A stretch of 32,000 bases of DNA from an uncultured archaeon. Lineage in GTDB: Archaea > Asgardarchaeota > Thorarchaeia > Thorarchaeales > Thorarchaeaceae. Each line of letters begins with the position of its first letter. Positions within the stretch are counted from its first letter, which is position 1. The translations under genes and the position numbers were made by a program. Below are positions 4,135 through 8,751 of the stretch, in pieces. The notes under the pieces are model-generated. The model searched no databases. It was given only the letters and a program-made list of their open reading frames with translations, and was not told where the DNA came from. The DNA lies in assembly GCA_964648855.1 (NCBI GenBank), contig CAZYLT010000021.1, positions 10,218-42,217 on the forward strand. Direction: 5' to 3'.

Positions 4135-7100
4135 GTGATTGACGTGTCTGGAACGAGGGGGCCGAGGAGCCGACCCCTACCTAAACATCCAAACCGGGTG
4201 CAGGTGGAGGCGATGCTGACAGGGCTGTCCACGCACGTCTACCTGCAGGGTACCCTCAAGAACACCGTCACAGCCCACTACCATGAGAGCTCCCGGTCAA
4301 TCCTCAAGCGGGGAAAGGAGGCGTACTACATCTCCAAGGCCGTGGGGAACCCTGACTTCTCCCATGTTACAGCTACCGAGAACAACATCCGGAAGAACGG
4401 GCTGGACCTGCTGGAGGAGAACGCCGCAGCCTACGGGTGCACCGAGACCAAGCGGGCAAGAAAGTGGTACGAGGAGGTGGGCCCGCTTAACCAGCGACTG
4501 AATGCCGGGGGTGCGGCTCTGAGGGAGTGCGCGGTGCTGGACTATCCCATGGGGCAAGGAAGACAGTTGATTGCTGAAGATGGGAGCGAGACCGGCTACG
4601 GATACCACGGTGACTCTAGGGCGCCGGCCTACAACCTCATCCACAAGACACTCCCTGAACTTGACTTTGTGGACTCCGTGCGATATCACATCCAGGTTCT
4701 CAATACGGACTGCTACATCTTCGAAGTTCCGGTGAGGGACACCAGGCGATACAGCAACCTGTTCCTGCTGCGAGCTCGGAAGTATCTAGACAACATCTAC
4801 ACCGAACACAAGTACGGAGAGAAGGGGTTCCGGAAGGGAACGTTGCGAATCCTGCGTGAGTTGCGTAACGACATCCGCAGACACTACAACACCCGAAGCG
4901 AAGACAGCCCAACGGTAAGCTCCAGCATCACGTATCATCAACCGACGTTCTCCATGCAGTTCTTTCGAGATGCGGTAGCGGAGGCCAAGAGGGCGGGAGT
5001 GGATCCACTGGCTACGGGCGAACTTGAACGCATCCTGAGACCCGGCACCAACATCATTCCGGATGCAAAGGGAAAACTCCGCCCCTGTCTGCGAACGGAG
5101 GATGTTGAGCACATCTGGAAGATGGCAACCGACCGAGGGAGGAAGATAGGCTCTATAGTTCATGGTCATATCACAGACCTGTTCGACAGCTTCAGGAGTG
5201 CAGGGGACGCCATCCGCAATGATGACCGAGATAGAATCAACCGGGATACAGTCAGAATAGTAGCGGAACTACCCCTGGAAACAAAGCTGGGGAAGGGTAG
5301 GGCTGATCTTACAGTCTTTCGGCGAGAGGTCGCGCCGCAGCGGCTCAAGACCTTCTATCGCCCCCAGATGGTGGTGGAGATCAAGACCCGTTCAGCCTTC
5401 GACTTTTCTTTGGGTTATGATATCAGACCTTCCGAGTCCAGAGCCAGATACGGCAAGCCTCCTCGTGTGGTCCCAGAGTTTGAGGTCGAGCCTCGTCCGC
5501 TCACCAAGAAGGAATGGGAGGCGGTAGTGGATGAGTTTCCAAGGCAACAGACTCAGCAGCAGCTCAAGGCATATGCGGATGCTCTCTCGGAGAGCTTTGC
5601 TTCGGTCTCTGGAACTGAGGATTGCGCTCCCGTGATCAAGGCAACGCTGCTTATTGACCCCTCCACCAGCAACCCTGAGAGCCGCAAGACAATCAGAGCC
5701 CTCATACTCCATGCCCTTGACACCATCCAGACAGAAGGTAAGATTGAGGAACGAATGGTCTTCAAGGTGGACAAGCAGCCAGCTGACACAGAGATGGTTC
5801 TTGTCGTCCATAAACAGAACTACTCGCAAGATAATATAGGTGAAGTTGTTCCACCCGAGTGGCGGCCTGCATATGACCCACTCTTTGGTTCAGGGTCGCG
5901 CAAGATGAGATTCATCCTCCACCTATCGGCGGCTTCTATAGGCTCATCAGGAAAGTCAGCCGCCAGAATCTCTGGCTATCATCATGGTATGCGTCTACTT
6001 TATGAAATTGTTCACAATAAGCCTCAGACTGATCTCGTGTGGTTCGACCTAGCTGATGATTTTCAATATGGACCGCTTGCCGAGGTACGACTGCGACTGA
6101 GAACACCCGATGAGGAGCATGACTCACCTGAAGAATTGTACGGACTGTTTGAGAGAATCAGATTCGAGGGGCTATTCTCTGAGATTCAGCGATATCTGTA
6201 TGAGGATGGTTTCCTTCCAGACATTCGGCACCATCTTGGTGAACCCAGAGACTCAGATCGCATAATCATTGTGAGCGGATGGGATCGGATACGAGAGTCC
6301 ACGCCAGCTCCATATCGGAAGAGACTGAATATGCTATTGGGCCATATCCTTCGCCAAATTCCAGATATTGAGAAGACAACCATCCTGTGGTTTGACCTTC
6401 CTGTCAGATATGAACGTGTGTCATCAGCCTATAGAATGCGTTGTTTCTTACCCTTCTATGATAACTCTCTCCTGAGGGGTGAGGTTACAGAGATGATGTG
6501 GAATCTCCCTTGTCCTCCTCCGGATGTCTTGGACCCGGATGAGTGGTACTTGCCCGTCATTCCAAAGACTCCCATGTTTGACGATATAAGAACAATAATC
6601 AAGCAGAAGGCTGACGGTTTCGAGGTCTCACTTGCTCATGTTCCACCCCTAGCCAATTGGGCAGACAAGTTTCGCACGGAGGACTTCAGCAATAAGGGAC
6701 CTCCACCCGTTTCAATTGATAAGGCAGTTCCTCGATTGCAGATAAGGAACAAAATCAAGGGGTTGGCTCTCTCCCTTCTCCCATGGCTGGCAGAGCTTCA
6801 TCCTGGGCAGATCGTGTCACTTGAAAACGATACAAAGCGGGCAGGAGAATTCGTTCGGTCCTATGTATCCAGTCAGCTACCCAGCTTGGATGATATGGGG
6901 GTTGTATCAGAGCACAAGGCAAGAACCACCCCACAATCAAACGAACTAGACCAAATCAGATTTAGAACATGTGTTCCAAGAACAGGCAAATCATTCCAGC
7001 AAATGACTGCCGGAAAAATCAACACTCACCGCTTGTACCGTAGTGAGGAGGAAACCAGAACCAAACGACGTCCATCTCACCCTATTGTTACATCGCTATC

Positions 7101-8751
7101 TCAAAATGATGAACAGTTTCTCTTCGGACAGCTGATTGAGGTTGAGGAACTACTCTCCCCTATGACCATACTGGCCATAGAGAATCCAAAGGATCCAGCT
7201 CAGCTACTAGTTGGATTCTTTTCCTCGGACAGGAGAAAGGACGGCAGGGGATTTGAGTGGGGCATTATTGACCTCGCCTCTTCTAGCAATGATTTGACCA
7301 AACTCGTTCAGAATTCTCCTCGGATCAATCTATTACTTCGTCACGACGGGGAAACTCTGATTTCATGGGCAATGGATTCGGACTCGCAAGACTGGTACTT
7401 GCATGGAATGATGGAAGTAATACCAGGAGAGAAACTGGGTTCTAGCGGCATTTTGCGTGCTGTTAGATTAAGTGACTGCAAAGGGCCTTCTACATACCCT
7501 AAAGCAACAGTTCCGGAAGAGTTCTCAGGGAGGGTTGACGAGGCCATAAGAAGAGTCCTGTCTTTGTCCGAAGATGCGGAACGAGTGAGTATTCGCCTAG
7601 ACTGGACAGAAATAGGGTGCACTGCGGAGATAGTGAATGCAGATGAGAAATCCATTGCGACTCTTACCTATAGACATACCGCCAATCTCGTTAACGTCTT
7701 GACTTTGACCAAGAATGGCTCTCCTATCCGACTGGACACCGGAGAACTTGTCTATTGGGACCGCTTCAGTGGTATTGCTTACGGCGAACTCTCAATCATG
7801 GGAGCCATGGCTGAAACCTACATTCCTGATACTGCCCCCGTAAACCTACCTGCCAAGCTGTCAGATATCTCATCTCTTCCAGAAGGAACGGTTCTTACTG
7901 TTGAGATTGTTCACAACCAAGAGCAGTGTCCGATTTCAACTCATAGCAAACGAAGCCATGGCAGATGTTGGAGCGTAAATATGCTATCGGATGATGAGGA
8001 AACACGTACCATCTTTCAAGGACTCTATACTGATAGGGAACTCTACCTGTTATTGTCACCCAAGAAGATGCTCATAGGAAACCAGATCTGTGAACTTGAA
8101 ATAGAGGTACCATCATCTCTGCAAGAGGGCGAAGGAATAGTTCTCCGTGAGAGTGGCTTTGTAACAAGGCTGCTACCTGATTCAGCGCCGAGGTATACAA
8201 GACTCACTCCAGGTACTTACGTTCGGGAGGACACGCAGAAGTGGAGGGTGTCCATCTCCGTGAATCGTGACCACCTGATTTGGTCTGGTCAGTCTTCTCT
8301 CACAGGAGATAACTGGAAGAAGAAAACCTACACATTTCCACTAGACTATGCAAGGCAGCTATCTGAGGTACAAGAAGAACTCTGGAATGCCGTTACATTG
8401 GAGATTCCGGCTGAGAAGTTGGAGAATCCACGTCTGCTGAAATCAAGCATGACAACTATCCTTCAAGGTCAAGGATTCAGTGATGGCCCACTCAAAGTAA
8501 AGATAGAACTAACTAAGACGCGAAACACACTCACCCAAACAATTCGAAAAGCTGAGGGGGATTGTTCTATCATTGAGACGCAGGAGATTACTATTAATCC
8601 GAATGAACACAAAGAAACCTTGACCGATGCAATCTATTATCAGATGGAGGAAGGGCTACTATCGAGGTTCGAGATAGTAAATAAAGATGGGTTTCTTGAA
8701 ACCCTGAATGAGTTATTAGACCAACCTCGGAGCAAGGACTCGTCTAATTAA
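4135..8751 (+). CDS. Large hypothetical protein (1538 aa) with a RecB/Cas4-like PD-(D/E)XK nuclease domain and a degenerate P-loop-like domain
   Basis: ELPL...GRADL...VVEIKT...QQQLKAYA at ~5260-5580. FILHLSAASIGSSGKS and IIIVSGWD resemble Walker A and Walker B. The remainder is unrecognised. Confidence 0.7.
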   Translation: MIDVSGTRGPRSRPLPKHPNRVQVEAMLTGLSTHVYLQGTLKNTVTAHYHESSRSILKRGKEAYYISKAVGNPDFSHVTATENNIRKNGLDLLEENAAAYGCTETKRARKWYEEVGPLNQRLNAGGAALRECAVLDYPMGQGRQLIAEDGSETGYGYHGDSRAPAYNLIHKTLPELDFVDSVRYHIQVLNTDCYIFEVPVRDTRRYSNLFLLRARKYLDNIYTEHKYGEKGFRKGTLRILRELRNDIRRHYNTRSEDSPTVSSSITYHQPTFSMQFFRDAVAEAKRAGVDPLATGELERILRPGTNIIPDAKGKLRPCLRTEDVEHIWKMATDRGRKIGSIVHGHITDLFDSFRSAGDAIRNDDRDRINRDTVRIVAELPLETKLGKGRADLTVFRREVAPQRLKTFYRPQMVVEIKTRSAFDFSLGYDIRPSESRARYGKPPRVVPEFEVEPRPLTKKEWEAVVDEFPRQQTQQQLKAYADALSESFASVSGTEDCAPVIKATLLIDPSTSNPESRKTIRALILHALDTIQTEGKIEERMVFKVDKQPADTEMVLVVHKQNYSQDNIGEVVPPEWRPAYDPLFGSGSRKMRFILHLSAASIGSSGKSAARISGYHHGMRLLYEIVHNKPQTDLVWFDLADDFQYGPLAEVRLRLRTPDEEHDSPEELYGLFERIRFEGLFSEIQRYLYEDGFLPDIRHHLGEPRDSDRIIIVSGWDRIRESTPAPYRKRLNMLLGHILRQIPDIEKTTILWFDLPVRYERVSSAYRMRCFLPFYDNSLLRGEVTEMMWNLPCPPPDVLDPDEWYLPVIPKTPMFDDIRTIIKQKADGFEVSLAHVPPLANWADKFRTEDFSNKGPPPVSIDKAVPRLQIRNKIKGLALSLLPWLAELHPGQIVSLENDTKRAGEFVRSYVSSQLPSLDDMGVVSEHKARTTPQSNELDQIRFRTCVPRTGKSFQQMTAGKINTHRLYRSEEETRTKRRPSHPIVTSLSQNDEQFLFGQLIEVEELLSPMTILAIENPKDPAQLLVGFFSSDRRKDGRGFEWGIIDLASSSNDLTKLVQNSPRINLLLRHDGETLISWAMDSDSQDWYLHGMMEVIPGEKLGSSGILRAVRLSDCKGPSTYPKATVPEEFSGRVDEAIRRVLSLSEDAERVSIRLDWTEIGCTAEIVNADEKSIATLTYRHTANLVNVLTLTKNGSPIRLDTGELVYWDRFSGIAYGELSIMGAMAETYIPDTAPVNLPAKLSDISSLPEGTVLTVEIVHNQEQCPISTHSKRSHGRCWSVNMLSDDEETRTIFQGLYTDRELYLLLSPKKMLIGNQICELEIEVPSSLQEGEGIVLRESGFVTRLLPDSAPRYTRLTPGTYVREDTQKWRVSISVNRDHLIWSGQSSLTGDNWKKKTYTFPLDYARQLSEVQEELWNAVTLEIPAEKLENPRLLKSSMTTILQGQGFSDGPLKVKIELTKTRNTLTQTIRKAEGDCSIIETQEITINPNEHKETLTDAIYYQMEEGLLSRFEIVNKDGFLETLNELLDQPRSKDSSN

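Follow-up and report, generated by a model that had tools for sequence, protein, structure and literature searches.

We analysed 32,000 nucleotides of DNA from an uncultured archaeon of the Thorarchaeaceae (GenBank assembly GCA_964648855.1, contig CAZYLT010000021.1, positions 10,218 to 42,217 of the forward strand), hereafter called the window, and focused on a gene encoding a giant protein of 1512 residues that stands next to tnpB. This protein is probably the integrase (transposase) of a Thorarchaeota element of ~6.8 kb lying at ~1974-8761 of the window. The element itself, on our preferred account, carries a replacement tRNA-Gly(UCC), an omegaRNA-like region, tnpB and the gene of the giant protein. 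We describe the domains of the protein, its linkage to TnpB and the anatomy of the insertion, and then propose a chemistry that would account for them. A preliminary description of the locus had offered three roles for the protein: effector, spacer-processing enzyme or mobilisation factor. The evidence favours the last, and the tests that we ran gave no direct support to the other two.

The gene and its family

The gene was initially delimited at 4135-8751, and this frame (+ strand) is indeed open across 1538 codons from a GTG. Yet the closest database entry (P0002, 1512 residues) starts at the ATG at 4213, 26 codons past the GTG, and relatives align from there. Hence 4213..8751 (+) is a likelier gene than 4135..8751, and we count the residues of the giant protein from this ATG. 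A phmmer search of 1.84 billion representatives returned 111 relatives at E<=1e-3, of which 58 were below 1e-30, mostly 1400-1800 residues long; one of the homologues (P0004) is labelled Candidatus Thorarchaeota. Conservation spans the whole protein in an alignment of 40 sequences, being highest in the N-terminal 230 residues and lowest in the C-terminal half. Homologues were found in 55 of 400 genomes searched in the phylum, among them 51 of the 85 searched from the window's own taxonomic family and 3 of the 12 from another. A search with the whole protein gave no match to any model in Pfam, NCBIfam or PADLOC. AlphaFold2 models built with the family alignment are confident, both for residues 1-835 (predicted local distance difference test, pLDDT, 87; predicted template modelling score 0.87) and for residues 800-1512 (pLDDT 80.6). 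The G+C content of tnpB and of the initial third of the giant gene (window 2000-6000) is 0.54-0.575, higher than the 0.41-0.45 of the remaining window.

A Cas1-like catalytic domain at the N-terminus

The N-terminal part of the protein had been described as unknown. Its residues 1-215 (4213..4857, +) are modelled with confidence (pLDDT 87) as an alpha-helical domain that resembles the catalytic domain of Cas1, both in structure and in its conserved residues. In an exhaustive comparison with 48,161 representatives of the PDB, the matches to residues 1-~215 were solely Cas1 or casposase chains, ten entries with Z values of 9.4-12.8: 8flj_A (Z 12.8), 4n06_B (12.1), 4w8k_A (11.9), 7kft_D (11.1), 5vvk_A (10.6), 2yzs_B, 3nke_A, 6qxf_I, 8d3p_A and the casposase 6opm_A (9.8). 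They cover types I-E, I-F, I-C and II-A, RT-Cas1 and a casposase. A second structure comparison gave 9p11_D (Z 13.0) and 3god_A (Z 12.6). The domain superimposes on the Cas1 and casposase entries with a root-mean-square deviation of 2.8-3.8 over 136-176 residues, and the part of Cas1 that it matches is the C-terminal catalytic helical domain.

Eight residues of this domain (E56, G75, R81, N93, G100, H144, D154 and R157) are invariant in 36 relatives, and D151 is found in at least 90% of them. When the domain is aligned by hhalign with 30 canonical Asgard Cas1 sequences, an alignment that is not significant, E56 falls on the catalytic Glu of Cas1, R81 and N93 on the signature 'RrRPP..pvNallS', and D151, D154 and R157 on 'LDlsEeFR', with H144 lying 7 residues ahead of D151. 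Searches with PDB sequence profiles found nothing for the N-terminal part of the protein, and a feature search of the ESM Atlas with residues 1-235 gave no usable match. Judged by its predicted structure, the region 1-~215 is the catalytic domain of a Cas1-type integrase. The N-terminus is thus no longer unknown. Nor can one maintain that no recombinase is in view, as had been stated, since the modelled integrase domain is part of the giant protein itself.

Other Asgard proteins of 1320-1370 residues have a Cas1 domain that Pfam detects (in genomes G041 and G058), and we considered them as possible relatives. They are unrelated in sequence to the giant-protein family. In these proteins (L044 9035-13126, L045 8766-12776 and L046 4970-8941) the Cas1 domain is near the C-terminus, and two genes of ~270 residues follow.

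A nuclease, a RecA-like fold and a fast-evolving C-terminal half

The second recognisable part of the giant protein is a RecB-type PD-(D/E)xK nuclease with a QhxxY motif (residues 300-470; 5110..5622, +). Its motifs had been noticed before, and we found them invariant in 40 relatives: G313, H317, E352, D365 (in GRAD), E/D389-x-K391 (EIK), Q450 and Y454. The active site is complete, with no catalytic residue varying in the family alignment. The region gives weak Pfam matches to HSDR_N_2 (6 of the 40 sequences), PDDEXK_9, VRR_NUC and NERD. Its hhalign alignment with Cas4 from Asgard genomes has the correct motif register at a non-significant P of 0.027. The absence of an iron-sulphur set of cysteines was also borne out: no Cys is conserved within residues 290-480 in the alignment of relatives, and the cluster cysteines of the Cas4/AddB type are lacking.

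A degenerate P-loop-like domain had been placed after the nuclease, around SIGSSGKS (5935-5958) and IIIVSGWD (6262-6285). These motifs lie in a domain with a RecA/Rad51/KaiC fold (residues 561-814; 5893..6654, +), whose core is recognised by Foldseek (E 5e-5), by structure comparison (Z 11-12.7) and in the ESM Atlas (template modelling scores of 0.55-0.64, by the hit). The P-loop of the window protein reads SSGKS. The family consensus is SSGxS: 7 of the 40 relatives have the Walker-A Lys and 33 have lost it, whereas the Walker-B-like D612 is invariant. Hence, ATP hydrolysis is no conserved property of the family.

The remaining ~700 residues (815-1512; 6655..8748, +) are the fastest-evolving part of the protein. 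They had been called unrecognised, which holds: the model is confident (pLDDT 80.6) and shows several small alpha/beta modules, and its best match among solved folds, by Foldseek and exhaustive structure search, has a Z of 6.0, with no recognised fold. Matches at or below this value, to fragments of LigD phosphoesterase-like, ribosomal and RNase-H-like proteins, were dropped as not interpretable. PDB sequence profiles returned only noise for this part and an ESM Atlas feature search with residues 960-1512 gave no usable match. The motif H1234-x4-C1239...H1249-x2-C1252 (nt 7912-7968, +) is conserved in 34 of 40 relatives and could possibly be a zinc knuckle.

The partnership with TnpB

Upstream of the giant gene, and divergent from it, lies the gene of a TnpB-like RNA-guided nuclease (TnpB/Cas12f-like) of 564 residues (2203..3897, -). 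The RuvC-I Asp and the RuvC-III NADRN are intact and the CxxC...CxxC finger is present. At RuvC-II a Gly stands in place of the Glu, and another conserved Glu, in VPENW ahead of the zinc finger, offers an alternative. A divergent tnpB stands beside the giant gene in all four close homologue contexts. The same arrangement holds at 23 of 29 loci drawn from other genomes, and of the six others two have no upstream sequence. The genome of the window itself has four complete pairs of tnpB and giant gene, whose members have diverged together, and two further copies that are cut by contig ends. The giant protein is functionally tied to TnpB. We found no full-length match of the protein to a characterised family unlinked to TnpB.

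The two partners have diverged unevenly. Between the window pair and the paralogous pairs, TnpB is 45-58% identical and the giant protein 25-28%. At loci L006, L050 and L052 the corresponding values are 91-92% and ~44%, the latter with 64% in the Cas1-like domain and 31% in residues 816-1160. At L001 and L005 they are ~65% and ~44%. This points to an exchange of modules or to very different constraints on the two proteins.

The region 3' of tnpB (2068..2202, -) is omegaRNA-like. It is conserved in the four paralogous loci of this genome, and carries in each of them AGAAGT, a variable stretch (11 nt in the window, 11-17 nt among the four) and GTTCACTC. Two further GTTCACTC motifs are found on the strand opposite to tnpB, at 1871-1878 and 3927-3934 (+). 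The former, which L003 and L006 also have, is conserved there and lies inside an array of short units described below. The latter is in the intergenic DNA between tnpB and the giant gene, the first ~114 nt of which are 77% identical to a paralogue on contig C28. An open reading frame of 149 residues (1757..2206, -), which gene callers also report in relatives, lies over the tRNA gene together with the omegaRNA-like region and is unlikely to be a gene.

This arrangement has a precedent in the literature. Altae-Tran et al. (2023, PNAS, PMC10691335) associated the TnpBs of two Asgard groups, Cas1H-Asgard-1 and -2, with a protein named aCas1, regarded it as the likely transposase of a distinct family of transposons flanked by repeats, and noted that, downstream of tnpB, a conserved T and a GTTCACTCA motif enclose a region that varies. 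As cited in that paper, the name aCas1 refers to the Cas1 homologues that Makarova et al. (2020, CRISPR J 3:156) reported from Asgard archaea. The four loci of the present genome show the T-variable-GTTCACTC signature when compared with the published text (PMC10691335). The signature and the pairing with TnpB indicate that the giant-protein family has already been described as that of the aCas1-TnpB loci. The likeness extends to the Asgard (Thorarchaeota-type) host, the giant Cas1-homologous protein beside tnpB with its predicted role of transposase, the variable stretch between the conserved T and GTTCACTC(A) 3' of tnpB, and the repeats that flank the locus. None of our results contradicts membership. 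Hence, the epithet 'uncharacterised' remains true at the bench, our literature search having found no experimental work on aCas1-TnpB elements, but not in print, where sequence surveys, the sole source of knowledge on the family, had reported both it and its link to TnpB.

An insertion site in the anticodon loop of tRNA-Gly(UCC)

The ends of the putative element are marked by pieces of a tRNA gene. On the left, a 5' half of tRNA-Gly (1646-1683, +) forms one side of a tRNA gene that is split at its anticodon loop. Then come five units of ~57 nt (up to 1992, +), each ending ...CCTTCCA and continued by CTGAT or CTAAT, which we read as the left junctions of successive insertions. An intact tRNA-Gly(UCC), the presumed replacement, follows at 1993..2067 (+), beside the 3' end of tnpB. 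On the right, 10 nt past the stop of the giant gene, a degenerate tRNA-Gly 3' half starting CTTCCAAGG (8762..8803, +) makes the right junction of the unit, and a well-preserved 3' half (11925..11970, +) makes the outer right junction. CTTCCA is common to left and right junctions. The left junction and the anticodon loop of the new tRNA are ~57 nt apart. This is also the period of the units, and it is the sum of a left end of the element of ~19 nt and a tRNA 5' half of ~38 nt.

Homologous loci show the same traits. A tRNA-Gly(UCC) also adjoins tnpB in L001, L003/L004 and L006, and orthologous junction units are found in L003, L006 and the same-genus genome G394. Past the giant gene, L003 and L006 have a tRNA 3' half together with omegaRNA and tnpB remnants of an older copy. 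At this site G394 has two units, an intact tRNA-Gly and an omegaRNA remnant, but neither tnpB nor aCas1; the DNA of its right flank is 90-92% identical to the window. As deduced from these sequences, the anatomy fits the repeated insertion of a unit made of a short left end, tRNA, omegaRNA, tnpB and aCas1 into the anticodon loop of the tRNA of the resident copy.

Some further features of the site can be mentioned. The anticodon loop of the intact tRNA-Gly (2022-2030) is CTTCCGA (G37) and is thus changed at the insertion site, while the loop is CTTCCAA in the orthologous tRNAs of L001, L003, L006 and G394 and in both displaced 3' halves. The right end (8735-8761) has TTAATGTCC four nt before the junction, and the left ends (1974-1992) have CTGATACGTCC or CTAATATGTC after it; the resemblance between these sequences makes for a direct, not an inverted, end motif. 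The C28 paralogue, oriented as here, likewise faces a tRNA gene. At that locus (L107, G000:C28, 9789-10172), a fragment of ~20 nt of a tRNA 3' end is directly past the omegaRNA-like region, and a tRNA gene of 92 nt, probably containing an intron, is 290 nt downstream and convergent with tnpB.

The units might also be read as an array of guides. The locus would then be a fixed (domesticated) RNA-guided system, in which the Cas1-like protein adds tRNA-anticodon-arm units beside tnpB and TnpB uses them as guides, i.e. a CRISPR-like module of adaptation plus effector. The units are indeed periodic, lie downstream of tnpB, have a constant core CCTTCCACTGAT with variable flanks and are vertically inherited; CRISPR adaptation relies on just such enzymes, a Cas1-type integrase and a Cas4-like nuclease; and the genome has no multi-copy element ends. 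Yet, a tRNA 5' half and ~19 nt of element left end account for each unit, matching 3' halves and older omegaRNA and tnpB remnants are found on the other side, the spacing in L001 is irregular (105-131 nt), and the module is absent from the same site in G394. We consider this explanation unlikely. One might also imagine a natural intermediate between a transposon and type V CRISPR, where the integrase, besides moving the element, lays the tRNA-anticodon-arm units as heritable guide-like records that TnpB reads. We find this decidedly unlikely.

Observations that weigh against an integrase

Several results sit uneasily with the proposal that the giant protein is an integrase that moves an element, and some of them concern the Cas1 resemblance itself. 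The hhalign comparison of the Cas1-like domain with Cas1 gives a P of 0.026, nearly equal to that of a mismatched control against Cas4 (0.051). The Pfam family Cas_Cas1 (PF01867) matches neither the giant protein nor any of 36 N-terminal domains of the family, and a search of this genome with PF01867 found two canonical cas1 genes only. Residues 1-~215 are helical, and Z values near 13 can arise by chance between helical bundles. The N-terminal beta (dimerisation) domain of Cas1 is missing, since the first helix of the model starts at residue 2, and in relatives at most ~40 residues precede it. Finally, no Cas2 family is represented among the neighbour genes of the window locus and of the four homologue contexts. 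The Cas1 assignment thus rests on the predicted fold, the pattern of residues and the literature, not on sequence statistics, because the hhalign score is non-significant and that of the control is similar.

The lack of a significant sequence match, the similar score of the control and the caution over Z values of helical domains would be expected if the resemblance to Cas1 were the fortuitous likeness of a helical bundle, and the giant protein were some other nuclease associated with TnpB, e.g. a defence effector or an accessory factor, without integrase activity. Against this stand the exclusive matching of Cas1 and casposase chains in the exhaustive structure comparison, the position of the family-conserved residues on the catalytic and signature positions of Cas1, and the independent classification of such TnpB partners as Cas1 homologues (PMC10691335). 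A fortuitous resemblance is, in our opinion, very improbable.

Other results concern mobility. The difference between G394 and the window may reflect a deletion, not an insertion. There is no sign of recent transposition in this genome: its paralogues are old, the ends occur once, as do the omegaRNA region and the intergenic DNA, and a search found neither miniature versions nor additional copies of the ends. Movement must then be rare and site-specific, not like that of insertion sequences. Orthologous units are common to genomes whose giant proteins are 43-82% identical, and turnover is therefore slow. In addition, the common core of 6-7 bp is also compatible with a site-specific recombinase acting in trans.

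The Mre11- and Rad50-like neighbours

Next on the same strand as the giant gene are genes for an Mre11/SbcD-like protein (362 residues) and a short Rad50/SbcC-like protein (655 residues), at 8872..11924 (+). With a nuclease and a RecA fold in the giant protein and such neighbours, one might suspect a host protein of DNA repair or recombination that works with the two downstream genes. However, the pair is absent downstream in the four other contexts examined (including L001, L003, L005 and L006). In the window, the segment is bounded by direct repeats of the tRNA-Gly 3' half, at 8761-8806 and 11925-11970. The 82% identical relative L003 is collinear with the window from the units to the first 3' half and then resumes with the DNA past the second, from which it follows that the segment was inserted separately between the two 3'-half copies. 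Other observations also fit poorly with a host repair protein: the loss of the Walker-A Lys in 33 of 40 relatives, the presence of at least four divergent copies per genome, and a patchy distribution (51 of 85 genomes in one family against 3 of 314 in the other families searched). A role in host repair is thus extremely unlikely. The Mre11/Rad50-like pair appears to be cargo that entered the same tRNA site independently, and not a partner of the giant protein. The pair gives weak matches to the anti-phage profiles AriA, TrlF and DS8/DS9.

Relation to other Cas1 and TnpB systems

The giant protein shares with CRISPR Cas1 (PF01867) the fold of the C-terminal catalytic domain and the conserved Glu/His/Asp/Asp(Glu) positions, and its Cas4-like nuclease recalls the fusions of Cas4 and Cas1. 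It differs in having neither the N-terminal beta domain nor Cas2, a Pfam-level match or a canonical CRISPR array, and in its about 1000 extra residues. The order of domains also differs, since the Cas1-like domain precedes the nuclease here whereas known Cas4-Cas1 fusions place Cas4 first.

Casposons are also mobile elements with a Cas1-family enzyme, and the casposase 6opm_A is among the structural matches given above. Several casposon families integrate at the 3' ends of tRNA genes. In the present locus the target is the anticodon loop, and the junction core is ~6-7 bp whereas casposon target duplications are 14-15 bp. The cargo consists of tnpB and a tRNA, and between the junctions we found no PolB or other casposon genes, only tnpB, the giant gene and the tRNA. 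The elements of the IS200/IS605 and IS607 families, in turn, resemble this one by having a TnpB with an omegaRNA-like region on its 3' side, near one end of the element. But there is neither a Y1 nor a serine TnpA here, the partner being a Cas1-like fusion of 1512 residues, and the element is specific for a tRNA gene and single-copy per type.

A possible mechanism

If the giant protein is an integrase, its Cas1-like domain would use transesterification, like Cas1 and casposases, to join the ends of the element to the target in the anticodon loop, leaving a short duplication of about 6-7 bp. Cutting or trimming of these ends might fall to the RecB-type nuclease, acting like Cas4 or like the TnsA of Tn7. 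The RecA-like domain could be a scaffold for oligomerisation or DNA binding instead of an ATPase, and the fast-evolving C-terminal half, with its H-C-H-C motif, could read the target. TnpB and its RNA may support retention or homing, as in IS605-type elements.

The locus offers a concrete system to test these steps, with defined junctions, a target that can be named as the anticodon loop of tRNA-Gly(UCC), a sister genome in which this site holds neither gene, and named catalytic residues for two nuclease/integrase centres. The giant protein, with its RecA-fold pseudo-ATPase and its large unassigned C-terminal half, would have the largest architecture among Cas1-family proteins. One compact unit here associates Cas1, the integrase of CRISPR adaptation, with TnpB, from which Cas12 descends, and the association is relevant to how type V CRISPR systems came to be assembled out of mobile elements.

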